64,000 nt of DNA from a phage: assembly GCA_036253495.1 (NCBI GenBank), contig GCA_036253495.1_4125.1; one strand, 5' to 3'. The notes beneath the pieces were generated by a model. The model was not told the origin of the DNA. It saw only the letters and a list, made by a program, of their open reading frames with translations, and did not search any database. Every line of letters starts with the position of its first letter. Positions within the stretch are counted from its first letter, which is position 1. Positions 8,340 to 63,467 of the stretch are shown here, piece by piece. A program made the translations under genes and the position numbers.

Positions 8340-8369
8340 TTGACTTTTTATATGAATCGTGTATTATAT
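8340..8369 (+). promoter_or_regulatory. sigma70-like promoter of the GTNYQ-family array
   Basis: TTGACT 8340-8345, TATTAT 8362-8367. Confidence 0.5.
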
Positions 8370-8397
8370 GATTGATATTAATTTTAAGGGAGTCCCT

Positions 8398-11690: not shown

Positions 11691-11880
11691 CGAATACGGT
11701 GTTATCATCCTTGATGTTATCAATAAAGAATACCATAGGAAACAACGATACGCTTGTTATGAAGATAAACAGCTTTCTATAGCTGAACAACAATTAGTTC
11801 ATTTATTAGGAACAAACTATCAAGAACAATGCACTGAACGTTACCTGTATCTACTGTCGAGGAAAACACAAAGATTATGA
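11671..11880 (+). CDS. GTNYQ-family small protein
   Basis: track ORF; LLGTNYQ. Confidence 0.7.
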   Translation: MQHLTDDEYGVIILDVINKEYHRKQRYACYEDKQLSIAEQQLVHLLGTNYQEQCTERYLYLLSRKTQRL

Positions 11881-12092
11881 AAATTTTAAGCGAAGGTGAT
11901 GAAGTAATATTACTTATAGAGAATTCAAGTAAATTCTTAAACATATCACTGTCTGATATAGATGAAGATGACAAAGAAGTACTGAGAGCAGATTTAAGAG
12001 TACTGTTACATCTCGGAACAAACCTACAAGAACAATTTGTTGAGGACTACATCAATGAACTTAAAGAATCAGTACTGAGAAGATGCAAATGA
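11877..12092 (+). CDS. GTNYQ-family small protein
   Basis: track ORF; HLGTNLQ; ATGA coupling. Confidence 0.7.
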   Translation: MKILSEGDEVILLIENSSKFLNISLSDIDEDDKEVLRADLRVLLHLGTNLQEQFVEDYINELKESVLRRCK

Positions 12093-12325
12093 AAATCATT
12101 TCACCTACTGAATACAACCAACTATTAAGTAGTTTAATTCCAAAGTTGCATCGTAGCTGGTCAGCAGAATTATCACAGGATGAAAAAAATATTCTAATAA
12201 GTGAAATCTATGTTCTAGCTACTATAGGAACTAACTATCAAGAACACATCATCGTGGATTATATTAATACACTTAAAAGGGTAATACAATTAAAATGCAC
12301 AGACAGCACATACACAAACCCCTAG
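12083..12325 (+). CDS. GTNYQ-family small protein
   Basis: track ORF; TIGTNYQ. Confidence 0.7.
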   Translation: MQMKIISPTEYNQLLSSLIPKLHRSWSAELSQDEKNILISEIYVLATIGTNYQEHIIVDYINTLKRVIQLKCTDSTYTNP

Positions 12326-12525
12326 GAACAGCAGAATACATTGAACTAATGGCAGCAAACTTCTCATCCTTTCAGAAACTGAGGCAAGAATCAAATAATG
12401 ATTTAGAATATCATATCAAAAGTTCAGATTTAAGATTGTTACTCACTCTAGGAACAGACAGTCAGTACAAATTCGTACAGGAGCATATTAGAGCACTTTT
12501 AAATGGCATCAGGGATAAACTATGA
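12295..12525 (+). CDS. GTNYQ-family small protein
   Basis: track ORF; TLGTDSQ; start uncertain. Confidence 0.6.
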   Translation: MHRQHIHKPLGTAEYIELMAANFSSFQKLRQESNNDLEYHIKSSDLRLLLTLGTDSQYKFVQEHIRALLNGIRDKL

Positions 12526-12737
12526 AGGAAATATCAAATCAAGAGTACTTGGCACTATTCAGAAAAAATAAGAAAGAATTTATTGTACTTGATACAAGAA
12601 CTGATATAGGGGAACTTGAAAAAAATCTTTTGCGTTCAGATATGATAGTACTGATACTCTTAGGAACACAGCATCAAGAAAGAACTGTTAATTCACACAT
12701 AGAAATACTTAAGAAGCTTATACAGGAAAAGTTATGA
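12522..12737 (+). CDS. GTNYQ-family small protein
   Basis: track ORF; LLGTQHQ; ATGA coupling. Confidence 0.7.
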   Translation: MKEISNQEYLALFRKNKKEFIVLDTRTDIGELEKNLLRSDMIVLILLGTQHQERTVNSHIEILKKLIQEKL

Positions 12738-12955
12738 GAATCATAACACAAAAAGATATGTTTAAGTTAGCAAGGGATCATGCATCTGAAATTGATGCTA
12801 TAGTATCAAAAAGTTACAATGACCCTTATACACAAGATGTACACTACAATGAATTATGGGTGTATATACTTTTAGATACAAATTATCAAGAGCAAGCAGT
12901 ACAGAGGTATTTGAGTGCTTTAAGTACTGCTACTGCTAATGGAATAGGTGTTTAA
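12734..12955 (+). CDS. GTNYQ-family small protein
   Basis: track ORF; LLDTNYQ. Confidence 0.7.
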   Translation: MRIITQKDMFKLARDHASEIDAIVSKSYNDPYTQDVHYNELWVYILLDTNYQEQAVQRYLSALSTATANGIGV

Positions 12956-12957
12956 AA

Positions 12958-13299
12958 ATGAAAACTAATATTCAACTTAAGGTTTATAAATCATTTGCAA
13001 GTACATATATCAAATGCAGTCTATGTAAAGATGTAATGGACTACAAAGGTAAGCCATTCACGATTACTTACGATTCTACAAGAGGTTTTTATATATCTTT
13101 TGCTGATTACAAATATAACATGTACGAACACATTGACATTGAAGATTTAAGTACTTTATCTGAAGAAGAATACTTTCAAGAATCATTAGTATGGGATTTA
13201 GAGTTTCCTATGCCATTGGTACATAAGATGATAGTACTAATAAAAGAAACTAAACAGGAGCCTAATAGTGCTTATGAAGAACACATTATTGAGTACTGA
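12958..13299 (+). CDS. FQxS-family protein
   Basis: track ORF; motif SEEEYFQESLVWD. Confidence 0.7.
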   Translation: MKTNIQLKVYKSFASTYIKCSLCKDVMDYKGKPFTITYDSTRGFYISFADYKYNMYEHIDIEDLSTLSEEEYFQESLVWDLEFPMPLVHKMIVLIKETKQEPNSAYEEHIIEY

Positions 13300-13302
13300 A
13301 CC

Positions 13303-13533
13303 ATGAAAAGATTATCATTCGAAGAGTACTGCAAGCTTATTAATACTTTACAACCACAAATAAAACAAATAAATTCTCTTCCTATATCCCAAGAAGAACG
13401 TGCAGTACTGAAAGATGAGTTAATTTTAAAATGCACAGTAGGTACTAACTATCAAGCTGATAGTGTTCGTTATCTAATTTGGGGTTTAATGTGCATAATA
13501 GAGAACAAAGCAGTTGACAGTACTCTAATGTAG
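13303..13533 (+). CDS. GTNYQ-family small protein
   Basis: track ORF; TVGTNYQ. Confidence 0.7.
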   Translation: MKRLSFEEYCKLINTLQPQIKQINSLPISQEERAVLKDELILKCTVGTNYQADSVRYLIWGLMCIIENKAVDSTLM

Positions 13534-13582
13534 TGCTATAGTGTCAGTACTTTTTCGAGCGTTAAAATATAGGGTACAGATT

Positions 13583-13828
13583 ATGTTAAAATTTTTAAAT
13601 TTCCTTATCGTCTTGTGTATTGTTCTTGGGATTGCACCGTTTGTATTAGCGTATCTGGATTCAGATGAAATGCACAAGATGAATTGCACAAAGACAGGAC
13701 AGAGTAGAAAAGAGACGGTTATGATGCCCGTAACGGTTATTGTGAATAACATGCCGATTACAAACATGGTCCCTACCCTAACGACAACGTACCAGTACTC
13801 TTGTGATGACGGAGAGAGGTGGAGATAA
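13583..13828 (+). CDS. hypothetical small membrane protein
   Basis: ATG 13583 within track ORF 13541; N-terminal TM helix FLIVLCIVLGIAPFVLAYL. Confidence 0.45.
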   Translation: MLKFLNFLIVLCIVLGIAPFVLAYLDSDEMHKMNCTKTGQSRKETVMMPVTVIVNNMPITNMVPTLTTTYQYSCDDGERWR

Positions 13829-13835
13829 TGCGATA

Positions 13836-14162
13836 ATGCGTAAGATCAATTGTATAAAAAGAGCGAATACATGTTTCATTGCGTTGACCAATGTACCGGG
13901 TGGGTCTGGTGTTAAGATATTTGAGTACAATAAAGTTGATAATTGTTTCTATTGGGTAGAAGGTATCAAATCATATGAAAATACGATAGCAGTACCGAAT
14001 CTAGTTGATATCTCTGAAGAAGAAGAGTTTCAGTACATGTTAGTACACGATGATTCTTTTGGGTTGACATACAAAGAGATGAAGGAAGTACAAAGGCAGA
14101 TGATATCATGTATGAATATTTCTAAGCATTTCCTTCAAAATATTCATCCAATTTACGTATAA
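13836..14162 (+). CDS. FQxS-family protein
   Basis: SD GGAGAGAGGTGGAGA + ATG 13836; motif SEEEEFQYMLVHD. Confidence 0.65.
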   Translation: MRKINCIKRANTCFIALTNVPGGSGVKIFEYNKVDNCFYWVEGIKSYENTIAVPNLVDISEEEEFQYMLVHDDSFGLTYKEMKEVQRQMISCMNISKHFLQNIHPIYV

Positions 14163-14171
14163 GAGATTAAT

Positions 14172-14507
14172 ATGAAATTCAACATTCATAGAATTAATTC
14201 CGGTTGTATATTTGCTTATACGCATGAGAATTACAAGAAGTACATGAATCATGAAGTACATTATGTTTTTGAGGACGGTAAAGAATATTTTGCTTATTTG
14301 AGTCCCAGGAGTTTAGGTAAGTACGAGTTGCTTCAGGATCTTTCTCTTATGCAGGAAGATGAATTATTTCAGTACAGTCTAATTCATGACCCTTATATGT
14401 TTGATATAGATATTATGTGCAGTTTACAGAAGAGGATGAAAGAAGTTTGGGATTCGATTAAAAGAGGTGATTGTATAGAATATGATAGTATACAAGAAGA
14501 TGCCTAA
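14172..14507 (+). CDS. FQxS-family protein
   Basis: track ORF; motif QEDELFQYSLIHD. Confidence 0.7.
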   Translation: MKFNIHRINSGCIFAYTHENYKKYMNHEVHYVFEDGKEYFAYLSPRSLGKYELLQDLSLMQEDELFQYSLIHDPYMFDIDIMCSLQKRMKEVWDSIKRGDCIEYDSIQEDA

Positions 14508-14700
14508 CGGATATGAATTGAAGTACAGACATTTTATTCGAAATGTAGATTCAGATCCTTTTAATGTTAAAATGGCAGAGTTCGATTTATTATTTTATCT
14601 AGGAACGAGAGCACAGCCACAATTCGTTGATGCATACATAAGGGCTTTACGAACAGAGATAGTATGCACACCAAAGGAGTCTAAATGTACAAAAATGTAA
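14482..14700 (+). CDS. GTNYQ-family small protein
   Basis: track ORF; FYLGTRAQ; start uncertain (alt ATG 14500). Confidence 0.6.
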   Translation: MIVYKKMPNGYELKYRHFIRNVDSDPFNVKMAEFDLLFYLGTRAQPQFVDAYIRALRTEIVCTPKESKCTKM

Positions 14701-14942
14701 ACCATCATTTGTACGCATCAAAGTACAGGGATTTTTGTTTACAAGGGGGCGATGAAGATTTTGCTTTGCGATTATCGGAATTTAATATGTTATTTTATCT
14801 TGGTACATCAGTACAAGAAGAAATGGTACAGAAATTTATCAAGCACCTTGAACGAAAAATTCATACGCAAATTTTGGTTGTTAAGTTACAGAATGAGATA
14901 AATGAATACAATGCAGAATCTAACAATAGTACAGGATCTTAG
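14685..14942 (+). CDS. GTNYQ-family small protein
   Basis: track ORF; FYLGTSVQ. Confidence 0.65.
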   Translation: MYKNVNHHLYASKYRDFCLQGGDEDFALRLSEFNMLFYLGTSVQEEMVQKFIKHLERKIHTQILVVKLQNEINEYNAESNNSTGS

Positions 14943-23214: not shown

Positions 23215-23748
23215 ATGATTATTGATGCTTACAATGCTGAGGAAATGCAGGAATTATCTCGTAAAATCAACATTATAGTTCCTTTGCTTAAGGATTGCAG
23301 TACTGGTTTGATTCCATCACGAGACATTATTAAAGAAGGATACTACCTACAGGCAGTCTATAAGGGTGGTACATTTCATCGTTGTCGTGTATTACGTGAT
23401 GGCCTTCCTGCACTTACACTCATTGGTATTGGTATTGCCTTATGCGGTACGAACCGTTTGTACTTGAATGAAAAAAATCAAATCATGAATTTGTTTTATA
23501 CAGGAAAAAGTACTGAATTATATTTTGGTATTCAGAACTGGTGGGATACAGTAAAGAGTAGTACTATTGAAATCCCAAAATACAATTACAACGCATTTGA
23601 AGAGCAGATGTTTCAATTGTCATGTACAGATGACATGTACATGATTCTACGTCTATATATGGAGATGCAAATGAACTTCAGAAGTAATTTATACATTGAT
23701 ACTTCAACATTTGAATTCGAAGATGTATTCGTTGATGGTATACTATGA
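23215..23748 (+). CDS. FQxS-family protein
   Basis: track ORF; motif EEQMFQLSCTDD. Confidence 0.7.
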   Translation: MIIDAYNAEEMQELSRKINIIVPLLKDCSTGLIPSRDIIKEGYYLQAVYKGGTFHRCRVLRDGLPALTLIGIGIALCGTNRLYLNEKNQIMNLFYTGKSTELYFGIQNWWDTVKSSTIEIPKYNYNAFEEQMFQLSCTDDMYMILRLYMEMQMNFRSNLYIDTSTFEFEDVFVDGIL

Positions 23749-23972
23749 AGTATATTCCAAAACACCAGTACTACAGGATGTGTTCTGACATTTACACAAA
23801 ATGGAATACATTTCATCCCCTTTTGAAGAAGAGGCGTCCATATCATGATTACAAGTTGAATCATTTTCTTGGAACTAATTATCAAGAGGTTGTGATGAAA
23901 GATTACATTTTTAACCTTCAGAAATTAATTCAGAATAAAGTTCAAGGAAAGGGGGAGTCACCGTGGGTATAA
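23745..23972 (+). CDS. GTNYQ-family small protein
   Basis: track ORF; FLGTNYQ; ATGA coupling. Confidence 0.7.
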   Translation: MKYIPKHQYYRMCSDIYTKWNTFHPLLKKRRPYHDYKLNHFLGTNYQEVVMKDYIFNLQKLIQNKVQGKGESPWV

Positions 23973-24169
23973 GACACAGAGACATGCAAGATATTCTTAA
24001 CCAATACAGTGCTCAAATGTTCACTGCAATCAGGTCTTCCAATCAAAATGACGTGTCGGAATTACAGTTACTGATGTACATAGGGACACAATACCAGGAG
24101 GCTTCAGTTGAGACGTATATTAAGTACCTATTGGGTATTATAAGGATGAAAAATGGACAATACTTTTGA
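23963..24169 (+). CDS. GTNYQ-family small protein
   Basis: track ORF; YIGTQYQ. Confidence 0.7.
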   Translation: MGIRHRDMQDILNQYSAQMFTAIRSSNQNDVSELQLLMYIGTQYQEASVETYIKYLLGIIRMKNGQYF

Positions 24170-47479: not shown

Positions 47480-48015
47480 AAGACACTTGTATAGTAACGT
47501 ATGGACGTATAAATCCAGTGCATTTGGGACATGGGTTAATTTTTGATAAAGCCGTATCGATGAAAGAACAATACAATGCTGATTTAAAAATATACCTTAG
47601 TACTACACAAGATTGTATTAAGAATCCATTACCACCTGAATTGAAAATGTATTACACTGAGGGTTTCTATCCAAGAATTCAACACAACATCAGTACTGAA
47701 GATAATCTTTTTGATATTATGCAGGAATTGAATGGTAAGTACAGTGATGTTCTTTTCATATGTGGTTCAGACAGGATAGAAAACTTTCAAAATGTACTTG
47801 ACAGATACAATGGAAACTTGTATAATTTTCGTAATATAAAAGCAATCCAAGCTGGTATAGACCGAACCGTTAGCAAGTACAGTTCAACTGAAATGCGTTC
47901 TTTTGCTAAGCGTGATGATTTTGAAAGCTTCAGTTCTTATCTACCAGGTGATGATAATGACTTGAAAATAAAACTTTTTAAAGATGTAATAAAATACATG
48001 AGGAAAGAACCATGA
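47476..48015 (+). CDS. HxGH-motif nucleotidyltransferase (NMN/NaMN adenylyltransferase-like)
   Basis: YGRINPVHLGHG (GxFxPxHxGH-type) near N-terminus and SSTEMR (ISSTxIR-like) near C-terminus; ATGA coupling to methyltransferase. Confidence 0.6.
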   Translation: MKDTCIVTYGRINPVHLGHGLIFDKAVSMKEQYNADLKIYLSTTQDCIKNPLPPELKMYYTEGFYPRIQHNISTEDNLFDIMQELNGKYSDVLFICGSDRIENFQNVLDRYNGNLYNFRNIKAIQAGIDRTVSKYSSTEMRSFAKRDDFESFSSYLPGDDNDLKIKLFKDVIKYMRKEP

Positions 48016-49231: not shown

Positions 49232-49504
49232 ATGGACTATCGAGTACTGAATAGAACATATAAAGCTTTATACAAAACATATATTGAAAGTAAAGTACAT
49301 AATCCTATCATTTATAAAAATCCAGTTTATATTATATGGAATGAATATTTTACAATGATTCAAAATTACTTTTACTCTAACGAAATCTTTATAGATGGTG
49401 AAATGCGTAAGCTAACACGCGTTGATAGTATAGGTGGTGAAATTGTGTTATTCTATACTGATTCTATTATTGGACAACAATCTATAAATTTAGAGATATT
49501 ATAA
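49232..49504 (+). CDS. KYIGK-family small protein
   Basis: track ORF; MDYRVLNRTYK N-terminus; VDSIGGEI block. Confidence 0.65.
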   Translation: MDYRVLNRTYKALYKTYIESKVHNPIIYKNPVYIIWNEYFTMIQNYFYSNEIFIDGEMRKLTRVDSIGGEIVLFYTDSIIGQQSINLEIL

Positions 49505-49770
49505 TGAATTATAAGGATTTACATTTCACCTATAAACTAACATTTTATATGTATCGTTATGCTGATAACAACTTCATGGATAATGCATTTTATCATCGTT
49601 TGTGGAGTGATTATATAAATTCTTTACGTGAACATTTTATAGGTACTATAATTCAATACGAAGGTAAAACAGTAAAAATATTTCAAGTTGATAGTTACAA
49701 CGGGGATCTATGCTTCAAGGGTAGAGATTCTAGTGATGGATTACATGAGATTTATATCTATGAATTATAA
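49504..49770 (+). CDS. KYIGK-family small protein
   Basis: track ORF; MNYKDLHFTYK; HFIGT..VDSYNGDL. Confidence 0.7.
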   Translation: MNYKDLHFTYKLTFYMYRYADNNFMDNAFYHRLWSDYINSLREHFIGTIIQYEGKTVKIFQVDSYNGDLCFKGRDSSDGLHEIYIYEL

Positions 49771-50035
49771 GGATTTACAATTCACGTACAAAATTCTTCA
49801 TGAACAATATGAACGTGGTGAAGGAATATTAACTTACGATGAACGAGATTTTTTTCTTACATTGTGGTGTGAATATTTGGCAATGATTAACGAGATTTTT
49901 GTTGATAAAGAATATATGATTGACGACATGACTGTACGTATTATCAGAATTAAAAGTTATAATGGAAGTCTTGTTGGAATTTACTATAACAATGAAAAGG
50001 CGAAAAGCGGATTTGTTGATTTGGAGTATCTATGA
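49760..50035 (+). CDS. KYIGK-family small protein
   Basis: ATG 49760 (MNYKDLQFTYK; track 49688). Confidence 0.65.
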   Translation: MNYKDLQFTYKILHEQYERGEGILTYDERDFFLTLWCEYLAMINEIFVDKEYMIDDMTVRIIRIKSYNGSLVGIYYNNEKAKSGFVDLEYL

Positions 50036-50295
50036 ACTATAATGATTTACAATTCACGTATCAACTTTTATATGATGATATGAATAACGAATTAGGTTTC
50101 TACTATGAAGTACGTAATAAAATATGGTCAAATTATCTATCTGAGATACAACATCATTTTATAGGACTTCCAATACGTAGAAATAATAAAAACTATCGTT
50201 GTACTGATGTAGTAAGTCATAGAGGTAGGTTGCGTTTAGAATTCTACCGCAGAGACGGGGACTTCATTGGTATAAATTTACTGGATTTTAAATGA
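50032..50295 (+). CDS. KYIGK-family small protein
   Basis: track ORF; MNYNDLQFTYQ; HFIGL..CTDVVSHRG. Confidence 0.7.
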   Translation: MNYNDLQFTYQLLYDDMNNELGFYYEVRNKIWSNYLSEIQHHFIGLPIRRNNKNYRCTDVVSHRGRLRLEFYRRDGDFIGINLLDFK

Positions 50296-50580
50296 TGAAA
50301 AACAACTTAAAGGAAATACAAGTATTTTATAGATTCTTATACTTGTCATATGTAACAGATGAGTACTATGAAAGTGTGTATTATTTTTTTATGGCAACAT
50401 TACCGTACTATAGTAAGAGATTTATATATAGGAAAATCTATCATATCCAATGGTGAAAAATGTACCTGTACAGATGTTGTTAGTTTTAATGGTTCTTTAA
50501 CACTGTGTTTCAGATGCGATAATAATAGTGGGTCATTTTCATTAAACGTATATCAGTTAGAAGGAATAAATTTTGAATAA
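50295..50580 (+). pseudogene. KYIGK-family paralog split by a +1 frameshift
   Basis: N-terminal half (ATG 50295, 56 aa, family-like) in one frame; C-terminal half (YIGKS..CTDVVSFNG) in the +1 frame as track ORF 50359-50580. Confidence 0.45.
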
Positions 50581-50773
50581 GTGTCCATATTGTAACAGTA
50601 CTCAATTAGCTCGTTTCCGCTTAGATTCAGACTGGGCCACTGGTGCTGGGGATTTCTTTCCCATCAATGATGATGCGGAATACACTGAAGAACAGCACAA
50701 AGATTTTGATAAATCATGGCGACCTGACATTGAGTGCATTTATTGCCTTAATTGTGAGCGTGTACATGACTAA
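50573..50773 (+). CDS. small zinc-ribbon protein
   Basis: track ORF 66 aa; CPYC..CIYCLNC. Confidence 0.6.
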   Translation: MNKCPYCNSTQLARFRLDSDWATGAGDFFPINDDAEYTEEQHKDFDKSWRPDIECIYCLNCERVHD

Positions 50774-51029
50774 AGCTGAACTAATAGTTCATACATATAA
50801 AATGATATACAGTACTGAGTTATCCTGTGGTGCAGATAATCCAGTACTGGACTATTTTATAGAATCTTTGAAAGAACATTATATTGGTAAATCACTGATT
50901 CTTAATAATATTAATTTCACTGTAAAGGATGTAGCACCTGGAAAAAACGTACTAATAGTATGTGTTACTTCATCTGATAACCCAGTATACCCAATAACAA
51001 TAATTTTTGAGGTATTAGGTGATTTATGA
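50766..51029 (+). CDS. KYIGK-family small protein
   Basis: ATG 50766 (track 50643); EHYIGKSLIL. Confidence 0.65.
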   Translation: MTKAELIVHTYKMIYSTELSCGADNPVLDYFIESLKEHYIGKSLILNNINFTVKDVAPGKNVLIVCVTSSDNPVYPITIIFEVLGDL

Positions 51030-52555: not shown

Positions 52556-52834
52556 ATGAATTTACAAAGAGATGTGTGGACATATGAATATCTTTTAGAA
52601 CTTTATGGTGATATGTATATTAAAAATAAACCATACATAGACGATATAAGGGCTATGATAGATGATTTTTCTTCTGAGTTTATTCCACTTTATACTAATA
52701 AAGAAGTTACACATAAATCAATGAATAAATCAGGTATCATTGATGAAATTGATTTTGATACACATGGTGTGTATTTTTATATTATTTTCTCCAATGATAC
52801 TGTTGGTATATACACGTATAAAGAATTAAAATAA
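52556..52834 (+). CDS. hypothetical protein
   Basis: track ORF 92 aa. Confidence 0.6.
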   Translation: MNLQRDVWTYEYLLELYGDMYIKNKPYIDDIRAMIDDFSSEFIPLYTNKEVTHKSMNKSGIIDEIDFDTHGVYFYIIFSNDTVGIYTYKELK

Positions 52835-52841
52835 GTACAGG

Positions 52842-52867
52842 CCAGCATGGATTGCTGGTCTTTTTTG
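52842..52867 (+). terminator. rho-independent terminator
   Basis: CCAGCATGGATTGCTGG hairpin then TCTTTTTT. Confidence 0.75.
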
Positions 52868-52877
52868 TAGGTACATT

Positions 52878-53177
52878 ATGGACAAAATACAATTAGTTAG
52901 TAGTACTATAACAATGCTTGCTGATGTTGCCAGATGGAGCAGTGGTGGTTCCGTTAGTACTATGCTCGGTATACTCACGCAATACACCTATACATGCAAT
53001 GGAATGTTATATGGTAAGGAGGTTGAAATTGATGATCCCTATGGAATTCCCATATCATATGACCGAGGTGTAATAAAAAGGGTTACTCTGAGACTAACAT
53101 ATCATCCATATTTTGTAGTAGAACTTCCAGATGGAAAATTAAGAGAATATGTTGCTAAAAGGTTAAAACTAAAATGA
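52878..53177 (+). CDS. hypothetical protein
   Basis: track ORF 99 aa. Confidence 0.6.
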   Translation: MDKIQLVSSTITMLADVARWSSGGSVSTMLGILTQYTYTCNGMLYGKEVEIDDPYGIPISYDRGVIKRVTLRLTYHPYFVVELPDGKLREYVAKRLKLK

Positions 53178-53752
53178 ATATTGTAGAATTAAGTACTAAG
53201 CTGATTACTATGCGTAACGAGTGGTACAATTGGTATTATAACGGTACTGACATGGATTTTTCAAAATATCCATTTATGGAATCAGGATGTGATTCAAGAT
53301 ACCGCTGGTTGAGTAAAGATGATTCTGGTTTACATATTCGAGTTGATGATAGTGGTCAGGGAATTATAAAAGATTTACTTCAAGTTGAAGAACTCGTCCA
53401 TGATGAGTGGTGTGATAATGATCCATACCTAGGAAATATAATTTATGTAACTGAAGATGATTGTATATTCGTCATTCAGCGTCATGGTGATTCTATGTTT
53501 TATATAGCAGACAGCAGTACACCTGAAGGTGCAGCATCAGATGGTCTTATTCCTAAGATTAATATATTAGATTTTGGCTTACCTGAGCACTTCCAGATGA
53601 GTACTCTATTCGATATTCCACCGTTTGAGTTCTTTGACGAATTTAAATTGTACTACAGTGATCTTCAGAAATTGAGTACAGAGAGTCGTATTGAAATAAC
53701 TGTCAGGTACATGGACGGGGCAAAATTAACCGACACGGGGATAGAATTTTGA
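53174..53752 (+). CDS. FQxS-family protein (outlier copy)
   Basis: track ORF; motif PEHFQMSTLFD. Confidence 0.65.
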   Translation: MNIVELSTKLITMRNEWYNWYYNGTDMDFSKYPFMESGCDSRYRWLSKDDSGLHIRVDDSGQGIIKDLLQVEELVHDEWCDNDPYLGNIIYVTEDDCIFVIQRHGDSMFYIADSSTPEGAASDGLIPKINILDFGLPEHFQMSTLFDIPPFEFFDEFKLYYSDLQKLSTESRIEITVRYMDGAKLTDTGIEF

Positions 53753-54438
53753 TTAAAGATTTAGATAGAATTTTATATGTACTAAGGGGTGTAATTACTT
53801 TACAACCACAGATTAACCGCATGGAGAGAGCCTTTGAATTAAAATCAAGAGAAACTCCATATTCACATATATCAAATGTAGTTGGCTCATTCTGCTCTGA
53901 AGACTCTGCATATGATATATATGTGTGTGAAGTACAGCCCAGTAATGATCTTGGTTTTGCAATCTTCGATAAAAATCAAGTACTGGTCAGTATGTTTCAG
54001 TGCAATAATCCTTTCTGGAAAACATGCCTGTACCCTGATTGGGCTATGCTTGACCCTACGAAGAGTAAGATTAAAGTATATGACTCTAAGAATGAAGAAG
54101 TTGTTATTGATTTGGATGAATCAATGACAGAGGAAGAACACTTCCAGCTTATGATGATGCGTGCGATGCCAGACTATGAAGCAATGATTAACACAGTACA
54201 ATACATTAAGGATACGATGAGATCATTGTGTAATCATGAGTTTTGTCATCCAGTATCTTATGAACATTTGGATTTAGATTTCAGTACTATCAAGTTTAAA
54301 GATAGTGTTATTGAATATATCCAAGAGAACACTAAATTTGATTTTATTAGTACAATGACAAATAATCCAAATACTAATTTCAGGCATCAGTACAATGAAT
54401 CTTTGTCTAATGGTCGAGATACCAGTTGGTGGAAATAA
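53749..54438 (+). CDS. FQxS-family protein (outlier copy)
   Basis: track ORF; motif EEEHFQLMMMRA. Confidence 0.65.
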   Translation: MIKDLDRILYVLRGVITLQPQINRMERAFELKSRETPYSHISNVVGSFCSEDSAYDIYVCEVQPSNDLGFAIFDKNQVLVSMFQCNNPFWKTCLYPDWAMLDPTKSKIKVYDSKNEEVVIDLDESMTEEEHFQLMMMRAMPDYEAMINTVQYIKDTMRSLCNHEFCHPVSYEHLDLDFSTIKFKDSVIEYIQENTKFDFISTMTNNPNTNFRHQYNESLSNGRDTSWWK

Positions 54439-54439
54439 T

Positions 54440-54703
54440 ATGAATATCCAAGATAGATTGCAATTGTTGCACACACTTGAAGAAGCTGCTTTTGAACTTG
54501 TTAATAAAATTGCACAAGAACTCCCAAAAGGAACCAACATTCGTGTTCGTGAAATGGATTATTTAACGGGAGAAATTGAAGAAAAAGTTCTAACAGTGAT
54601 CAAAGTAACATACTATGAATCAGAGTTATCAATTCAATGTAAGTCAGATAATGGTTACGTTTCCTACTATGGCACAGATGTAGATATAGAGGTAATTAGA
54701 TGA
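54440..54703 (+). CDS. hypothetical small protein
   Basis: ATG 54440 (track 54395). Confidence 0.55.
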   Translation: MNIQDRLQLLHTLEEAAFELVNKIAQELPKGTNIRVREMDYLTGEIEEKVLTVIKVTYYESELSIQCKSDNGYVSYYGTDVDIEVIR

Positions 54704-55845
54704 GTAATTTACGAGAAATATACAATGATTTAATGGAACTATGTGAATCTAATGATGCATTTTTCTATATAGATCACACAAGCCCTGGTGGTGGTTTATA
54801 CCGTGTATTCACCTATCGTCTGGCATCTTATACCGATTTCACAAATAAAAATGCACTAGAAACTCGTGGTTCTATGTGGGAAATTGATTCCAACGGAATT
54901 ATGATTCGTTGTGCAGCACGTACAATGAAAAAGTTCTTCAATGCATATGAAAACCCGTACACAATGTTCAGTACTGATACTACCTGTGATGATATTGCGG
55001 TTGTAATGCCTAAGCTAGATGGATCTATCATCAGCACATTCCGTGATAATGATGGTGAAATCCGTTGCAAATCACACACTTCGTTATCTTCTGACCATGC
55101 TATTAACAGTACTCGACTTTTGAACGAGAACCAAAATCTCTATCAATACATTGATGAAGCAGACCGTTTGGGCTATACTGTGAATCTGGAATACACAAGC
55201 CCAGAGTATCGAATTGTGTTACCATATCAGGTGGAACAGTTATTTGTTCTTAACGTTCGTCATCGTATTAGTGGTGAGTTGTTATGCGGTAAAGCACTAC
55301 GTGATAAGTTTCCATGCCTTTCACAGTACAGTACTAATATGACAGGTAATGACATTCATCATACATTCCCGATTATGCCTACATTTAAAGAGTCAATCGA
55401 TAAAGTACGTTCTATGATTGACATTGAAGGTTTTGTGTGTATAATGAAAGATGGTACAATGTGCAAAATCAAAACTGACTGGTATTGCTCTTTGCATTTA
55501 ACAAAAGATTCCATTCTTATTGATTCCCATTTATATGAAGCTGTACTGACTGGTGCAAGTGATGACTTAAAACAATTGTTCAGTACTGATACATATGCTA
55601 TGGATAAGATATTAAGAATGGAACAATTGGTATTTTCGTGCTATAATGCTTTACAAGATGAGGTAGAAAGCTTCGTCCATGCATACAAGCACTTAGAGCG
55701 AAAGGAATTCGCACAAAAGGTTCAGCAAGATTTACCGAATGTATTGAACCGACAAGGCTTGGCCTTTGCGTTGTACAATGGCAAAAGTGTCGATTATAAA
55801 GAGACTTTACTAAAGTACTACAAAGATGTACTAAAGGATTTTTAG
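54700..55845 (+). CDS. rnlA: RNA ligase 1 (T4 RnlA-like)
   Basis: 381 aa; collinear with T4 RnlA as I recall it: YNDLMELC N-terminus, ligase lysine motif PKLDGS, MKDG..KIK..DWY, GASDDLK. Confidence 0.85.
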   Translation: MSNLREIYNDLMELCESNDAFFYIDHTSPGGGLYRVFTYRLASYTDFTNKNALETRGSMWEIDSNGIMIRCAARTMKKFFNAYENPYTMFSTDTTCDDIAVVMPKLDGSIISTFRDNDGEIRCKSHTSLSSDHAINSTRLLNENQNLYQYIDEADRLGYTVNLEYTSPEYRIVLPYQVEQLFVLNVRHRISGELLCGKALRDKFPCLSQYSTNMTGNDIHHTFPIMPTFKESIDKVRSMIDIEGFVCIMKDGTMCKIKTDWYCSLHLTKDSILIDSHLYEAVLTGASDDLKQLFSTDTYAMDKILRMEQLVFSCYNALQDEVESFVHAYKHLERKEFAQKVQQDLPNVLNRQGLAFALYNGKSVDYKETLLKYYKDVLKDF

Positions 55846-55874
55846 TACTAACTAGCCCAGCACAAGGAGAAGTG

Positions 55875-56129
55875 ATGGCTAAACCTAAGTATAAAAATGA
55901 TGGTTCCCTTTCTCCTACTGAGTTCAGGAAAATACAACAAGAAATCGATGATTTACAGCACAAACGCTCAATGAAAGGTGTGAAGATTAGTAAGAAGCGA
56001 ATCGAGAATACTTTTGGGTGTAGTAGTACTGAATATAAGAAGAAAAGGAAACCAAAGGATGTTAAGCCGAGAATACATGATGTAACTCGCTATACATCAA
56101 AACGTGAAAATAAATTCGATCCACTATAA
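55875..56129 (+). CDS. hypothetical basic protein
   Basis: SD AAGGAGA + ATG 55875 (track GTG 55872); Lys/Arg-rich. Confidence 0.6.
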   Translation: MAKPKYKNDGSLSPTEFRKIQQEIDDLQHKRSMKGVKISKKRIENTFGCSSTEYKKKRKPKDVKPRIHDVTRYTSKRENKFDPL

Positions 56130-56138
56130 GGAGTTCAT

Positions 56139-56375
56139 ATGAAAGTTGAAGTTCAGCATAGTATTGTTCAGGATATGTCAGTGGTTAAGTTTCTTTCTCT
56201 GAAAGATTACTTCAGATGTATCAAGTTCCTTGAAGAATCTCAATTACAGTGGACCCCCTTAAAGTACAGTTCATCCAATGACACTGCTAGTATTCGTTGT
56301 GATGAAGCTGTACTTGTAAAAATCTCCAAGCGATTTGGAGTTGGGAAATACAATGAAAAACAATCATTCAAGTGA
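56139..56375 (+). CDS. hypothetical protein
   Basis: track ORF 78 aa. Confidence 0.6.
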   Translation: MKVEVQHSIVQDMSVVKFLSLKDYFRCIKFLEESQLQWTPLKYSSSNDTASIRCDEAVLVKISKRFGVGKYNEKQSFK

Positions 56376-56607
56376 TTTGTTATATTATAAAGTACTATCA
56401 GAATGTTTGACAGATGTATTGTACCGTGAGAGTAATACTCTACGTGCAAAATATATTAACAAAAGAGTACGTTATAAATCATCTTATGATGGGATGAATG
56501 TTTATGGTAAAATCACTAATGTATATGTAGATGATGATTTTACATTGAATATCACTGTCGATAATTGTATTGGTATCTCAATTGATGATATTATTGAGGT
56601 AATCTAA
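56353..56607 (+). CDS. KYIGK-family small protein
   Basis: ATG 56353 (track 56335); AKYINKRV. Confidence 0.6.
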   Translation: MKNNHSSDLLYYKVLSECLTDVLYRESNTLRAKYINKRVRYKSSYDGMNVYGKITNVYVDDDFTLNITVDNCIGISIDDIIEVI

Positions 56608-56918
56608 TGAATAAAGCATTAAAAGAACTTCATAATTTAATGAATGCAGAAATTGAATTAACTAATACTATTTCTGAAATTGTTCATGATATGATTACAC
56701 AATACAAGAAATCACTCATTGGTAAGAAAGTTGAATGCTGGGATTACAACACTAAAACATGGTTCGAAACTATCATTAGTGATGTTAATGTTAAATTTCA
56801 TGTAGTTACTCATCACATTTCTGACGAGTGCTATGTAGAAGTAACTATAGGACACAACACGCGACATGAACGTTTTTCGTGGTACAATCTAAAGAATGTG
56901 AAATTTATTGAGGATTAA
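56607..56918 (+). CDS. KYIGK-family small protein
   Basis: track ORF; SLIGKKV. Confidence 0.65.
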   Translation: MNKALKELHNLMNAEIELTNTISEIVHDMITQYKKSLIGKKVECWDYNTKTWFETIISDVNVKFHVVTHHISDECYVEVTIGHNTRHERFSWYNLKNVKFIED

Positions 56919-57851
56919 ATGCCAACTATTACACTAACAGTTGGATTGCCAGGATGTGGTAAAACCACGTGGGCAGTGCAAGAAATTAAAAAAGCAAAGT
57001 CCAAGACTATCAACATCAACCGTGATGATATTCGAGAGTCTATGGCTGGGTCACATGATGCTTATAAATTCACTGATGCGAACGAGAAGTACGTAACTAA
57101 TCAACAGTTCAGTGCAGCAAACGCCGCAGCAGCGAATGGATGGAACATTATTGTGTCCGATACGAACCTGAAACAAGGTTTTCGTGATGAATGGAAACGT
57201 TGGGCTAAAGATAATGGCTACGACTACAAAGAAAAGAACTTCTACGAAGATTTTGTACCGAATGAAGACCGTGGTGCAGATGTTCATGAATTCTTTAAGA
57301 TTAAGGAATTCGTGAAGCTCTGTAAGAAACGCAACCTTCTTCGTGAGCGTTCAGTACAAGATGAAATCATTGACACTATGGCAGATACGTACTATTATAG
57401 TAAGGCGATGCACATTGGTTACTATGGTAATGCACGTGAAGCTGCTATCATTGTTGATATCGACGGTACTCTTGCTCATAAGTGGGGACGTAACCCGTTT
57501 GATGAAAGTACTGTCCTTCAGGATACACCAGATGAAGAAGTAATTCTGTCTGTCATTGCTGAGGCTGTTTTCCATAAGCGTAAGGTAATCGTCATGAGTG
57601 GGCGTACTGAAGGGTGTCGTGCTGATACTGAACAGTGGCTTAAGAATTGGGGCATTCCCTACGATGTATTGTTAATGCGAGCTATCGATGATAAACGTCC
57701 TGATGATGTTGTCAAATTCGAGTTGTATATGAATAACGTTGTTAATCATTACGATGTTAAGAAAGTATTTGATGACAGGGCCGCCGTTGTATTCATGTGG
57801 CGTAAGCTACTAGGCTTGAAAGTATTTCAGGTGGAACCTGGACTATTTTGA
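56919..57851 (+). CDS. pnk: polynucleotide 5'-kinase / 3'-phosphatase (T4 Pnk/PseT-like)
   Basis: 310 aa; kinase P-loop GLPGCGKTT, phosphatase DIDGTL, C-terminal RKDDV..K-like block; collinear with T4 Pnk as I recall it. Confidence 0.85.
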   Translation: MPTITLTVGLPGCGKTTWAVQEIKKAKSKTININRDDIRESMAGSHDAYKFTDANEKYVTNQQFSAANAAAANGWNIIVSDTNLKQGFRDEWKRWAKDNGYDYKEKNFYEDFVPNEDRGADVHEFFKIKEFVKLCKKRNLLRERSVQDEIIDTMADTYYYSKAMHIGYYGNAREAAIIVDIDGTLAHKWGRNPFDESTVLQDTPDEEVILSVIAEAVFHKRKVIVMSGRTEGCRADTEQWLKNWGIPYDVLLMRAIDDKRPDDVVKFELYMNNVVNHYDVKKVFDDRAAVVFMWRKLLGLKVFQVEPGLF

Positions 57852-57861
57852 TTATTACAAA

Positions 57862-57889
57862 GGGATCAGTACTGATCCCTTTTCTTTTA
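57862..57889 (+). terminator. rho-independent terminator
   Basis: GGGATCAGTACTGATCCC hairpin then TTTTCTTTT. Confidence 0.75.
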
Positions 57890-57903
57890 ATTTAGGTGAT
57901 ATA

Positions 57904-58164
57904 ATGGATAATAGTTATGATGTACATTTCAAACAATGCCAGTTGGTTTTACACTCCCTAATGGAAGAGTTGCGAATCAAGTACATAGGCAAAATTGCTA
58001 CATGTTTATCAACTGGAAGACGTGGGCAAATTGTAGAGATTTATTATTCTCCACTTAGTGATGAAATTAAAATAAAAGCTAAAATATTCCTAACTGGATC
58101 TAACAATTTCTTGGGTGAACATATGGTAAAAATTATCTCTGAATTATCGATAACGGATGAATAA
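57904..58164 (+). CDS. KYIGK-family small protein
   Basis: track ORF; IKYIGKIA. Confidence 0.7.
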   Translation: MDNSYDVHFKQCQLVLHSLMEELRIKYIGKIATCLSTGRRGQIVEIYYSPLSDEIKIKAKIFLTGSNNFLGEHMVKIISELSITDE

Positions 58165-58166
58165 AC

Positions 58167-58433
58167 ATGGATATTAATAAAGATTTTAGATTTATCAATT
58201 CGCATATACAAGTACTGAAAACATTAGTAAAACAAGTATCAGAAAAATACACAGGAACTTATGTTAGATGTGCTTTTGATGCAAATGACTGGCAACGAAT
58301 TATAAAAATAGATTCAGTTTATCTTGATACAAATAATAGTATTACAGTTTCAGGTATTGATATGTATGGTCATCGATATCAATTTACTACAAGAGCCACA
58401 ATAACTACAGTGGATGGATATGAATACGAATGA
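58167..58433 (+). CDS. KYIGK-family small protein
   Basis: track ORF; EKYTGTYV. Confidence 0.7.
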   Translation: MDINKDFRFINSHIQVLKTLVKQVSEKYTGTYVRCAFDANDWQRIIKIDSVYLDTNNSITVSGIDMYGHRYQFTTRATITTVDGYEYE

Positions 58434-58719
58434 ATTCCAAGCATTATTGAAAACATTATATCTTCTTAAAGAAGAATCTCTTGCAATGTATAATGAAAAA
58501 CAATACAAGTTTGAAGAACAACTCATTCATTTTCATGATGAATATCTTGACTTTTTGAATAAAAAATACTCAAATGTTCAGTGCAAATATCGAGGTAGTG
58601 ATGTTATTATTACCGAAATCGAATCCAGTACTTACGGATATCCATACCTTTGTTGCAAATATATCCCAAGTAATATAACATTTCGCTCAAGAATGTATTC
58701 GAGGTTTATTTTTTCATGA
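58414..58719 (+). CDS. hypothetical small protein (KYIGK-family-like)
   Basis: track ORF 101 aa. Confidence 0.55.
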   Translation: MDMNTNEFQALLKTLYLLKEESLAMYNEKQYKFEEQLIHFHDEYLDFLNKKYSNVQCKYRGSDVIITEIESSTYGYPYLCCKYIPSNITFRSRMYSRFIFS

Positions 58720-58997
58720 ATAATGATTCATTGAAGTTTTTTTATTATCATTATCGTATTTTACGTAGTTTATATTTTTCAGAATCCGATGAAAGATTAC
58801 TAACATCATTATCAGTACTGATGGATAATTACGAGAACGAATTATCAAAAGTGGTTTTTGGTGTCAATGTTCTAGATGATACCGATTTAACATGGACAAT
58901 TATTGAAGTGGCGACCTGGAATGGTAATATTTTGTACAGGTGCGAACGAGCAGGTTTTTTATGGGATGCAACATATGACGAGATTAGAATTGTATGA
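58716..58997 (+). CDS. hypothetical small protein (KYIGK-family-like)
   Basis: track ORF 93 aa; ATGA coupling. Confidence 0.55.
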   Translation: MNNDSLKFFYYHYRILRSLYFSESDERLLTSLSVLMDNYENELSKVVFGVNVLDDTDLTWTIIEVATWNGNILYRCERAGFLWDATYDEIRIV

Positions 58998-59274
58998 CAG
59001 GCAAGTGAAATTGATAAGAGATACTCGTCGTTTCTTTCATACTCAATTAGTAGACCCATGTTATGATATTTCCGATTTCCTTGAAACCTATCTCCTTGAT
59101 CTAACTACACCACTGCTTAAAAAATACGTAGGAACAAAAGCTATATATCTTGGAAGAGAAGTTGAAATTACCAACATATCATATTCTTATGGGGCATACA
59201 TGTATACGGCAAAATCTGATAATGGACAAAGATATTATGCAATACGATCAAGAGAACTTACTATTATTGGATAG
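58975..59274 (+). CDS. KYIGK-family small protein
   Basis: ATG 58966/58975 (track 58903); KKYVGTKA. Confidence 0.55.
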   Translation: MTRLELYDRQVKLIRDTRRFFHTQLVDPCYDISDFLETYLLDLTTPLLKKYVGTKAIYLGREVEITNISYSYGAYMYTAKSDNGQRYYAIRSRELTIIG

Positions 59275-59302
59275 GCATCTTGCTATTCTTATCGACCTTG
59301 TG

Positions 59303-59566
59303 ATGGAAAGTGATGTAAAAATTTTTGAAAGTAGATTTCTTGAGGATTATAAAACTGAATTGCAAGAACTGTACAAAGGTAAAAAAGTATTACTTAGTAC
59401 TGGTGACTATGGTAAAATTGAGTACGTGTATTATGAATGGAAAAAGGTTATATATTTTATAAAAACCAAAATAAAATACCAAAATAAAACAAGAACCTAT
59501 AAAGCATATTACGATTCAAATGAGATAGAGATTATATATGACCAACACGTTAATAACAAAAAGTGA
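59303..59566 (+). CDS. KYIGK-family small protein
   Basis: ATG 59303 (track 59150; alt 59222); ELYKGKKV. Confidence 0.5.
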   Translation: MESDVKIFESRFLEDYKTELQELYKGKKVLLSTGDYGKIEYVYYEWKKVIYFIKTKIKYQNKTRTYKAYYDSNEIEIIYDQHVNNKK

Positions 59567-59861
59567 ATTAGATTATTTGAATTATATAAACAGATACTTT
59601 CTGATTCTATATAATATACTTCTTGAAGAACAATGCACTAAATCAAACCATCAGTTATATAACTATATTAACTGTATAATTAGTGAAATATATGAATCAT
59701 TGGAAAAGAGATTTAAGTACAGAACTATTAAGTGCGAAGATGATATTGTATATATTCATGGTGTTTTTGGTACAGGATATGGAATATTCGTTGATTATAA
59801 AATACACCCATTTGATCCGTACATAGAAAATAGTATGTACATAGAAGAGATTGAACTATGA
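59538..59861 (+). CDS. hypothetical small protein, paralog of 59858-60175
   Basis: track ORF; VFGTGYGIFVDY. Confidence 0.6.
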   Translation: MTNTLITKSELDYLNYINRYFLILYNILLEEQCTKSNHQLYNYINCIISEIYESLEKRFKYRTIKCEDDIVYIHGVFGTGYGIFVDYKIHPFDPYIENSMYIEEIEL

Positions 59862-60175
59862 CACAAGAAGAATATAATAAATTAATAATGTACGAGAATC
59901 ATTTTAATTATTGTCTGAAATGGTTATTGTACATTGATAACGTTGAGATGGATATGTACAGAAAAGAGGTGAATAAACGTGTTAAAGATTTCTATTACGA
60001 ATTGACTGATCTTTTTTATAATAATGTAGTATATGAAGCAAATACCAGTCGTGATTATGACCTTTATATCAAGCAAATATGGGGTACTGACTACGGTCTG
60101 ATGATTGATTGCAGTACTGATGTTAATACAGACAGACCCAGTACTACATTGTATCTGGATGAGATTTTCATATGA
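59858..60175 (+). CDS. hypothetical small protein, paralog of 59538-59861
   Basis: track ORF; IWGTDYGLMIDC; ATGA coupling. Confidence 0.6.
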   Translation: MTQEEYNKLIMYENHFNYCLKWLLYIDNVEMDMYRKEVNKRVKDFYYELTDLFYNNVVYEANTSRDYDLYIKQIWGTDYGLMIDCSTDVNTDRPSTTLYLDEIFI

Positions 60176-60474
60176 ATGAACTATTACTTTGTCATAAAAC
60201 ATACATTATGCTATTCAGAACGTGCCATGATATGCGAATTGAGGGGATACTAGACTACCCAACTATGATGATTAACTTCAGGGTGTTAATGGATTCATAT
60301 TCACAATCTGTTATTGATGCATTTGAAGGTAGAGAAATAAAGTTCAAAAATGCCAGGACAAATAATGAGCTATGTGATACAATTAAATCAGTGGGGATTT
60401 CGGTTCCAAATGTGTACGTAATCCCATTGATGTACGGAAAAGTAGTATCCACTAACGAAATTATTAGTATATGA
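60172..60474 (+). CDS. hypothetical small protein
   Basis: track ORF 100 aa; ATGA coupling. Confidence 0.6.
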   Translation: MNELLLCHKTYIMLFRTCHDMRIEGILDYPTMMINFRVLMDSYSQSVIDAFEGREIKFKNARTNNELCDTIKSVGISVPNVYVIPLMYGKVVSTNEIISI

Positions 60475-61971: not shown

Positions 61972-62206
61972 ACAGTTAAAGATGTTACAATCGTTATCTG
62001 ATGATTTTGTCCAACGTGCTAAGCACAAATATATTGGTCAAGAAATTCTTCTTAAACACTCCAGAGGTTGGCAAAAAATATGCATAAGAGATATGGGAAC
62101 ATATTATGGTGATGTGCGATATTACGTAGATTGCTATGTTAATGACCAAATTGCCAATACTCAAGTTGTCACCTATGATAAAATTATATGGATTAAAGAA
62201 CAATGA
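61952..62206 (+). CDS. KYIGK-family small protein
   Basis: track ORF; HKYIGQEI. Confidence 0.65.
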   Translation: MTKTEIEQLKMLQSLSDDFVQRAKHKYIGQEILLKHSRGWQKICIRDMGTYYGDVRYYVDCYVNDQIANTQVVTYDKIIWIKEQ

Positions 62207-62946
62207 AACATTTCTTAGAAGTAACAGTTCCTGATGAAAAAGATTTGTATATAGTAGGAGACATTCACGGTAATGCAAAACTATGGGAACATACCAAGAA
62301 AGAATTTGGTATTACTCCTGAAGATTATGTATTCAGTTTAGGCGATTTAATTGACAGAGGTGAGCAAAGTGCTCACCTTTTGTTTGAGTTTTTATTCGCT
62401 GAGAATCGATATATGATCATGGGCAATCATGAATCGATGTGTATTGATTCTGCAACTCATCGTGACTGGTATCATTGCTGGACACAGAATGGGGGCGATA
62501 AGTTCCTGGAAGAAGTTGGTGTATCAGGAGTGGAATTCTTCCGTCAGTACTTGAACCAGCTACCTATGATTATCCAAATCAATCACAGAGGACTCAAGAT
62601 TGGCCTCGTACATGCAAGTGTAGACCTTAAGCACACTGACTGGAATAAGTTCATTACTGGGACAAAATCAATGTCCAGTGATACAATTGAGTCATGCCTA
62701 TGGGACAGAAAGACATTTGATTTCTGTAAAGCTAACAACGTCTTTAATGCACCACGTATTGCTAACGTCGATTACGTTCTTAGTGGTCATACCGCTGTGT
62801 TTGATCCCCTAATTTATGGAAACCGTATCTGGATTGACAGTCAGTTCCTTACTGGTGATTTGACTATTGCTACCCCACAAGGTGGTAAGATGCGTTATTT
62901 GCGTAAAGAAAAAGACGAATATTCATTCAGTCGATTCAAAAGGTAA
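62203..62946 (+). CDS. PPP-family Ser/Thr protein phosphatase (lambda-phosphatase-like metallophosphoesterase)
   Basis: GDIHGN, GDLIDRG, GNHE motifs in canonical order; ATGA coupling. Confidence 0.85.
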   Translation: MKHFLEVTVPDEKDLYIVGDIHGNAKLWEHTKKEFGITPEDYVFSLGDLIDRGEQSAHLLFEFLFAENRYMIMGNHESMCIDSATHRDWYHCWTQNGGDKFLEEVGVSGVEFFRQYLNQLPMIIQINHRGLKIGLVHASVDLKHTDWNKFITGTKSMSSDTIESCLWDRKTFDFCKANNVFNAPRIANVDYVLSGHTAVFDPLIYGNRIWIDSQFLTGDLTIATPQGGKMRYLRKEKDEYSFSRFKR

Positions 62947-63239: not shown

Positions 63240-63467
63240 ATGAAAGTAATTTATGTTCAGGTTGAAAAATATCAAACTGAAGATGGTCGCATTTTTGATT
63301 CAGCTAAACAAGCTGAGCATCATGAACGTATTATTTCTGGTGTTCGTCGCATTTGTCCTAAATGTAACGGAACACAACAAGTTCCCGATGAAGAATTTCG
63401 TCGCTATTATGCATGTCCAGATTGTGATGGTAAAGGATATGTAGAAAAACAAGAGGTATGGAAGTGA
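63240..63467 (+). CDS. small CxxCxGxG zinc-finger protein
   Basis: track ORF 75 aa; CPKCNGTQ and CPDCDGKG. Confidence 0.65.
   Translation: MKVIYVQVEKYQTEDGRIFDSAKQAEHHERIISGVRRICPKCNGTQQVPDEEFRRYYACPDCDGKGYVEKQEVWK

Follow-up and report, generated by a model that had tools for sequence, protein, structure and literature searches.

Defences that target transfer RNA (tRNA) have turned out to be widespread, and the escape of large phages from them is an active question. The closest described counterpart of the locus treated here is that of phage T4, in which the genes for RNA ligase 1 (RnlA, gp63) and for the polynucleotide kinase/phosphatase (PseT, Pnk) lie on one strand, ligase first, in the order rnlA-alc-pseT.3-pseT.2-pseT.1-pseT and with a gap of 1,432 bp between the two enzymes. 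In the T4 ligase, R54 and K75 are essential gamma-phosphate contacts (PMC6379707), and specificity for tRNA repair resides in the C-terminal domain (Wang et al., 2007, cited in PMC6379707). Among 224 surveyed jumbo phages, an Rnl1-type ligase and a PNK-HAD enzyme form a common RNA-repair set; the ligase is described as ATP-grasp-type, and the pair has been interpreted as a means of countering host effectors that cleave tRNA (Iyer et al., 2021; PMC7824862). Here, such an rnl-pnk pair is described from a 64,000-nucleotide stretch of phage DNA (GenBank assembly GCA_036253495.1, contig GCA_036253495.1_4125.1), referred to as the window. By sequence and gene order, its rnl and pnk genes are jumbo-phage orthologues of the T4 healing-and-sealing pair, inherited in a T4-like arrangement. 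The pair is already known and not new, since it is annotated in Escherichia phage A4 and in the PBECO4 RefSeq record and is described in print as a common set in jumbo phages; annotations of it are found in dozens of Asteriusvirus genomes, and the paper on the sister phage phAPEC6 suggests that such phages counter Prr (PMC7247149). While the pair adds nothing new, the core rnl-o1-o2-pnk, which includes two conserved small genes and can be set apart from filler open reading frames (ORFs) of the KYIGK type, represents a testable lead.

Source genome and layout of the locus

The segment shares 98.1% identity with Escherichia phage A4 (Asteriusvirus, 355 kb) and ~85% with 35 other jumbo coliphages and Salmonella phages, and the window can be assigned to an Asteriusvirus jumbo coliphage. 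Between 52 and 60 kb it consists of a dense series of plus-strand ORFs, in which rnl and pnk are separated by 1,073 bp holding four ORFs, here called o1 to o4. The locus comprises the following features:

54700-55845, plus strand: rnl, Rnl1-type ATP-dependent RNA ligase, 381 amino acids (Pfam, PHROG and T4 Rnl1 structure matches)
55872-56129, plus strand: o1, small, very basic protein (phrog_15306, E=2e-41)
56139-56375, plus strand: o2, orphan protein of 78 amino acids, conserved between rnl and pnk
56335-56607, plus strand: o3, KYIGK-type small ORF (leave-one-out profile; the A4 annotation starts at 56353)
56607-56918, plus strand: o4, KYIGK-type small ORF in a hypervariable slot directly upstream of pnk (phrog_31355 and leave-one-out profile)
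56919-57851, plus strand: pnk, polynucleotide 5'-kinase/3'-phosphatase, predicted to be bifunctional, 310 amino acids (Pfam, PHROG and T4 Pnk structure matches)
57859-57892, plus strand: intrinsic-terminator-like hairpin (10-bp GC-rich stem, 4-nt loop, U-tract)
52839-52861, plus strand: preceding terminator-like hairpin

A first-pass annotation of the stretch had placed a T4-type ligase at 54700-55845 and a kinase/phosphatase at 56919-57851, and both ORFs are present on the plus strand at exactly these coordinates. The motifs on which it relied are found as well, PKLDGS in the ligase (residues 104-109) and both GLPGCGKTT (9-17) and DIDGTL (180-185) in Pnk. It had further described the interval between the two genes as filled only by basic and KYIGK-family small ORFs; a basic ORF (o1) and KYIGK-type ORFs (o3, o4) are indeed located there, but the distinct and conserved o2, which is neither basic-repeat nor KYIGK-type, had been overlooked.

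RNA ligase and polynucleotide kinase/phosphatase

The ligase combines an adenylyltransferase domain (PF09511 RNA_lig_T4_1, 57.8 bits at a cut-off of 28.3) with the Rnl1-specific, all-helical C-terminal domain that is linked to tRNA specificity in T4 (PF20819 T4_Rnl1_C, residues 269-367, 55.8 bits at a cut-off of 27). It belongs to phrog_562 (RNA ligase and tail-fibre attachment catalyst, E=3e-106), finds its best PDB match in T4 Rnl1 (2c5u, E=8e-56) and is 100% identical to the protein annotated as 'RNA ligase' in A4. With T4 RnlA (gp63; PDB 2c5u, 5tt6) it shares this two-domain build, 37-40% identity over ~335 residues, the lysine nucleophile in K-x-D-G-S, motifs III, IV and V, the R54/K75/F77 set and the location of the gene upstream of pnk on the same strand. 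Motif I, K105-L-D-G-S, aligns with K99-E-D-G-S of T4 and is invariant in five sequences, and K105 is the predicted AMP-accepting lysine. In both pairwise and multiple alignments, the T4 residues Y37, R54, K75, F77, K99, D101, G102, S103, E159, L179, R182, E227, G228, K240, K242, Y246 and D272 are kept. Motifs III, IV and V correspond to E164, E243-G244 and K256 and K258 of the window protein, the N-terminal ATP contacts to R56, K78 and F80, and T4 D272 to D288. Unlike T4 RnlA, the window ligase carries a ~17-residue insertion after the region around T4 position ~190, and the middle of its C-terminal domain is rearranged.

The second enzyme is composed of a P-loop kinase (residues 1-~165) followed by a HAD/DxDxT phosphatase (~175-310), an order shared with T4 PseT (PDB 1ltq), to which it is 33-37% identical over the full length. 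Its phosphatase part is recognized by PF25109 HAD_PNKP (143.7 bits, cut-off 27.6) and the kinase by AAA_33 (53.7 bits), and the protein matches phrog_505 (polynucleotide kinase, E=4e-95) as well as the structures of T4 Pnk (1ltq, E=3e-36) and Pnkp1 (4xrp, E=1e-29); it is 99.7% identical to the A4 protein annotated as '3'-phosphatase, 5'-polynucleotide kinase'. Within the kinase, the P-loop G9-LPGCG-K15-T16 (T16 is Ser in T4), D36 and R39 match the T4 set of K15, S/T16, D35 and R38. The phosphatase set is intact, with D180, D182, T184, R191, S227, R229, D262, K266, D285 and D286 standing for T4 D165, D167, T169, R176, S211, R213, D254, K258, D277 and D278. Differences from PseT are a deletion of T4 segment ~216-227, an insertion of 20-35 residues in the kinase domain and an apparent shift of the equivalent of R126. 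The insertion, at residues ~113-135 of the window protein, occurs in all RaK2-like Pnk proteins and is longest in the Xanthomonas phage XaC1.

The T4-type pair of Rnl1 and Pnk is thus borne out by sequence, domain architecture and catalytic residues, with agreeing Pfam, PHROG and PDB matches that lie far outside the range of chance. An absent ligase lysine or absent kinase or phosphatase residues had been named beforehand as evidence to the contrary, and K105, K15 and D180 are all present. As nearly all catalytic residues are kept, both enzymes look functional.

Gene order in T4 and T4-like phages

Phages found in both the Rnl1 and the Pnk protein searches show the same order of the two genes as T4, with the following gaps between them:

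Klebsiella phage Roth17: 1,474 bp
Acinetobacter phage Morttis: 1,696 bp
Vibrio phage K575: 2,098 bp

The claim that the two enzymes form a compact pair therefore holds for their closeness (1,073 bp) and fails for any special compactness, given 1,432 bp in T4 and 1.5-2.1 kb in the others. Since the layout recurs in T4 and T4-like phages, closeness is the usual arrangement and not peculiar to the window. The rnlA-pseT block of T4 resembles the jumbo-phage block in order, strand, the presence of four small genes in between and the similar gap. The genes in between are not homologous, however, and the jumbo-phage block has its own conserved o1 and o2. A derivation of o1-o4 from T4 alc or pseT.1-3 was considered and rejected, as no significant BLASTP similarity was detected between them, and a relationship of o2 with PseT.1 was likewise dismissed (hhalign probability of 0.15% for the o2 profile against PseT.1).

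Conserved small proteins o1 and o2

Directly downstream of rnl, in a conserved position, o1 encodes a protein of 85 amino acids if translated from GTG 55872, or of 84 amino acids from ATG 55875 as in the A4 annotation, with an isoelectric point (pI) of 10.1 and 24 K/R among its 85 residues. The o2 protein is predicted to adopt a beta-beta-alpha-beta-beta-alpha fold that is weakly ACT-like, and 18 of its alignment columns are invariant, including H7, S8, Q11, D12, K17, Y43-S44-S45, R53 and E56. Searches with tblastn recovered o1 in 62 and o2 in 71 phage records, all of them RaK2-like jumbo phages. Among 5.8 billion proteins, o2 is represented by 30 clusters, all at least 64% identical, which marks it as an orphan. 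An exhaustive profile search for distant o2 relatives in 1.84 billion sequences returned three strong representative clusters, the other five being fragmentary matches in long proteins.

The order rnl-o1-o2-pnk is kept in Asteriusvirus, Eneladusvirus, Alcyoneusvirus, Xanthomonas phage XaC1 and two metagenome contigs. Identities to the window proteins are as follows:

XaC1: o2 59%, o1 57%, Rnl1 49%, Pnk 42.5%
Eneladusvirus: o2 67%, o1 59%, Rnl1 60%, Pnk 57%
Alcyoneusvirus: o2 67%, o1 32% (shortened, 57 amino acids), Rnl1 64%, Pnk 63%

The conservation of o2 always equals or exceeds that of both enzymes, and the same was noted for o1 except in Alcyoneusvirus; within the cassette, o2 ranks highest in conservation. 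It abuts or overlaps pnk in XaC1, Kaldavass, XbC2 and EJP2. Conservation does not extend to the flanking ORFs or to an extra ORF ("x") that separates o1 from o2 in other genera. In comparison with PBECO4, the ratio of nonsynonymous to synonymous substitution rates (dN/dS) is 0.056 for o1, 0.12 for o2, 0.11 for rnl and 0.11 for pnk. Based on conserved linkage within one viral lineage, a role of o1 and o2 in the same repair process as the enzymes can be tentatively suggested, though it is rather doubtful.

As a separate observation, the synonymous divergence from PBECO4 is very uneven along the cassette, with dS values of 1.15 for rnl and 0.62 for pnk and of only 0.24-0.27 for o1 and o2. This hints at either a mosaic (recombinant) history or nucleotide-level constraint across o1-o2.

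KYIGK-type small ORFs

The proteins of the KYIGK type, ~85-105 amino acids in length, are characterized by an N-terminal helix, the pattern K-x-[YL]-x-G-K-x-V and a beta-rich C-terminal part with 'I..V' and 'EIxxI' motifs; the combination of N-terminal helix and beta-rich C-terminus suggests a small barrel domain. Single-sequence phmmer searches for this family returned nothing even at E<=1, and the family was defined by a hand-seeded alignment and leave-one-out profiles scored against 3,000 shuffled decoys. In this test, o3 reached 15.6 bits and o4 16.0 bits, with 0 of 3,000 decoys scoring as well in either case, and over the family members as a whole the corresponding number ranged from 0 to 41. 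An off-frame entry (f59003), which served as control, failed the test, and o1 and o2 score as non-members. Further members lie outside the rnl-pnk pair, at 52556, 58167, 58414, 58716, 59858 and 60172. The look-alikes at 57904, 59240, 59538, 60471, 54395 and 52878 fell short of significance in the leave-one-out test, so that the boundary of the family is soft. For o3, neither Pfam nor PHROG yielded a match.

Comparison with related phages separates these ORFs from their neighbours. PBECO4, Eneladusvirus and XaC1 all lack o3. Between o4 and the ORF that takes its place in PBECO4, identity is only ~38-41% (dN/dS of 0.40), where neighbouring genes reach 83-95%. No KYIGK member is found inside the cassette in Eneladusvirus and XaC1, and in Alcyoneusvirus and a related metagenome contig members occur inside the cassette and on both flanks. 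The family profile also matches ORFs on both cassette flanks in PBECO4, KP13-7 and contig L009. Because the family to which o3 and o4 belong also flanks the pair, and the two are absent or replaced in relatives, they are not parts of the module. The sequence comparisons instead mark the KYIGK-type ORFs as unrelated intruders from a local paralog expansion. The earlier suggestion that the small proteins between the enzymes are module accessories consequently falls for o3 and o4, and for o1 and o2 it may hold, given their conserved linkage. In the window, KYIGK-type members are scattered over 52556-60474, and between close relatives they share 33-42% identity where neighbouring genes share 82-95%.

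Probable transcription unit

Neighbouring genes of the cassette are spaced by -23 to +26 nt, Shine-Dalgarno-like sequences precede the starts, and rnl shares its first 4 nt with the end of the ORF upstream. The hairpin and U-tract at 57859-57892 begin 8 nt after the pnk stop codon, and each of the four lineages (Asteriusvirus, Eneladusvirus, Alcyoneusvirus and XaC1) has a GC-rich hairpin and a run of T after pnk. Tight plus-strand packing and a conserved terminator just after pnk indicate that the genes are probably co-transcribed. The hairpin at 57859-57892 is likely the end of the transcription unit and that at 52839-52861 its probable upstream boundary, which suggests a unit of ~5 kb ending with pnk.

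A candidate internal promoter in rnl, a perfect 12/12 match to the sigma-70 consensus (TTGACA-16/17-TATAAT) on the plus strand at 55418-55445, was discounted as coincidental, since it overlaps the conserved DIEGFV codons, and neither PBECO4 (CATCCT) nor other genera retain the -10 element. A second perfect 12/12 match to the same consensus is located on the plus strand at 47798-47826.

Proposed function and alternative explanations

By analogy with T4, Rnl1 and Pnk of the window most likely perform heal-and-seal repair of tRNA, with both activity and tRNA substrate carried over from the T4 enzymes, and a counter-defence role may reasonably be extrapolated from the same source. In the proposed sequence of events, a host anticodon nuclease (PrrC-like or similar) would cut the tRNA anticodon loop and leave 2',3'-cyclic-phosphate and 5'-OH ends. 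The C-terminal HAD domain of Pnk, with D180 of DIDGT as nucleophile, would then remove the 2',3'-cyclic or 3' phosphate, and the N-terminal P-loop kinase (K15/T16, D36, R39) would phosphorylate the 5'-OH. Finally, Rnl1 adenylylated on K105 would transfer AMP to the 5'-phosphate and seal the break, the Rnl1-specific C-terminal domain presumably directing the ligase to tRNA anticodon loops. The basic o1 and the orphan alpha/beta-fold protein o2 may act together with both enzymes.

Several observations weigh against this assignment. At the position of T4 Rnl1 K119, which is reportedly essential by mutagenesis, the window ligase has His126, and His is present in every RaK2-like orthologue examined (all four jumbo-clade ligases), a clade-wide difference from T4; the adjacent K117 and S118 are invariant in the Rnl1 alignment. 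As the substitution is common to the whole clade and accompanied by purifying selection, it is not considered a lesion, nor was it taken to exclude membership in the Rnl1 family. In Pnk, the counterpart of the kinase lid arginine R126 of T4 is ambiguous, being R138 by phmmer and, in the multiple alignment, one position off R142, a residue that is invariant in the jumbo clade within an invariant 'NLxR'. T4 gp63 also promotes tail-fibre attachment, and the ligase may accordingly be retained for another reason. Furthermore, experiments on any Asteriusvirus enzyme were not found in the literature, and no tRNA genes or known RNA families tying the locus to tRNA were detected in the whole 64-kb window. 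With regard to o1 and o2, their linkage was seen within a single viral lineage and could in part simply reflect common descent.

One alternative extends the repair explanation and does not replace it. Here, rnl-o1-o2-pnk would be a four-component system with o1 (likely RNA-binding) and o2 (ACT-like) as dedicated accessories, one of them, for example, presenting tRNA or serving as chaperone and the other acting as adaptor or regulator, or both inhibiting a host anticodon nuclease directly. This extension is possible, albeit not probable. Across genera, o2 is 59-67% identical, in comparison to 49-64% for Rnl1 and 42-63% for Pnk, and o1 reaches 57-59% in Eneladusvirus and XaC1; both are always found between rnl and pnk, with o2 abutting or overlapping pnk in the four phages named above, while flanking and other intervening ORFs turn over. 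The low dN/dS values of o1 and o2 and the pI of o1 point in the same direction. Nevertheless, this evidence amounts to linkage inside one phage lineage, o1 of Alcyoneusvirus is shortened and diverged, and in T4, whose intervening genes are unrelated, the two enzymes suffice. The accessories mentioned in the parts of the jumbo-phage survey drawn on here are RlaP, 2H, cRec and KptA, without o1 or o2 (Iyer et al., 2021; PMC7824862), and these four domains were not found in the ORFs adjoining the rnl-pnk pair. The 242-amino-acid upstream neighbour was tried as a further repair accessory and rejected, because it has a restriction-endonuclease-like fold and falls outside the ligase-associated families given in those parts of the survey. 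In a more specific form, which has to be regarded as speculative, RaK2-like phages would rely on a cassette of four genes for tRNA repair, in which Rnl1 and Pnk could not do without the basic o1, a putative RNA binder, and o2; alternatively, these two would be dedicated inhibitors or decoys of a host anticodon nuclease. If true, o1 and o2 would form an accessory layer without counterpart in T4. Both genes have kept their place between the healing and the sealing enzyme in phages of Escherichia, Klebsiella, Erwinia and Xanthomonas, which makes them inexpensive and specific leads in the search for novel cofactors of repair or inhibitors of the nuclease.

Alternatively, inherited synteny alone could account for the locus, with Rnl1 acting mainly in gp63-like tail-fibre attachment and Pnk in general nucleic-acid end processing, and no counter-defence module being present. 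The PHROG and RefSeq family name, 'RNA ligase and tail fiber protein attachment catalyst', is compatible with this view, the common order in T4-like and RaK2-like phages could be a frozen ancestral arrangement, and variable, unrelated genes are tolerated between rnl and pnk. However, the catalytic residues and the tRNA-specificity domain of the ligase are under purifying selection, which tail-fibre attachment alone would not require; the linkage persists while neighbours are replaced, and for T4 there is genetic proof that the enzymes work jointly (Amitsur et al., 1987, cited in PMC6379707). Separate roles are therefore considered unlikely in comparison to joint tRNA repair. Finally, it is highly improbable that either enzyme, or both, is a relic with impaired catalysis. 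Such a state might be indicated by His126 in place of K119 in Rnl1 and, in Pnk, by the kinase-domain insertion and the uncertain alignment of R126. The substitution and the insertion are, however, common to every RaK2-like orthologue examined at a dN/dS of ~0.11, which fits a functional clade-specific variant and not decay, and all other essential residues are intact.

Other features of the window

Approximately 150 of the 153 ORFs called in the window are located on the plus strand. Three large tandem paralog arrays were noted, all on this strand: 23 small ORFs of ~70-95 amino acids at 8359-14942 and 23745-24169, 22 ORFs of ~100-210 amino acids at 12958-37026, and five ORFs of ~73-128 amino acids at 49232-51029. 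Downstream of the cassette, and likewise on the plus strand, two ORFs correspond in the A4 annotation to a putative serine/threonine protein phosphatase (62203-62946) and a DnaJ-like 'molecular chaperone' (63240-63467). In Klebsiella phage KP13-7, a phosphatase gene (pphB) is similarly placed downstream of pnk.

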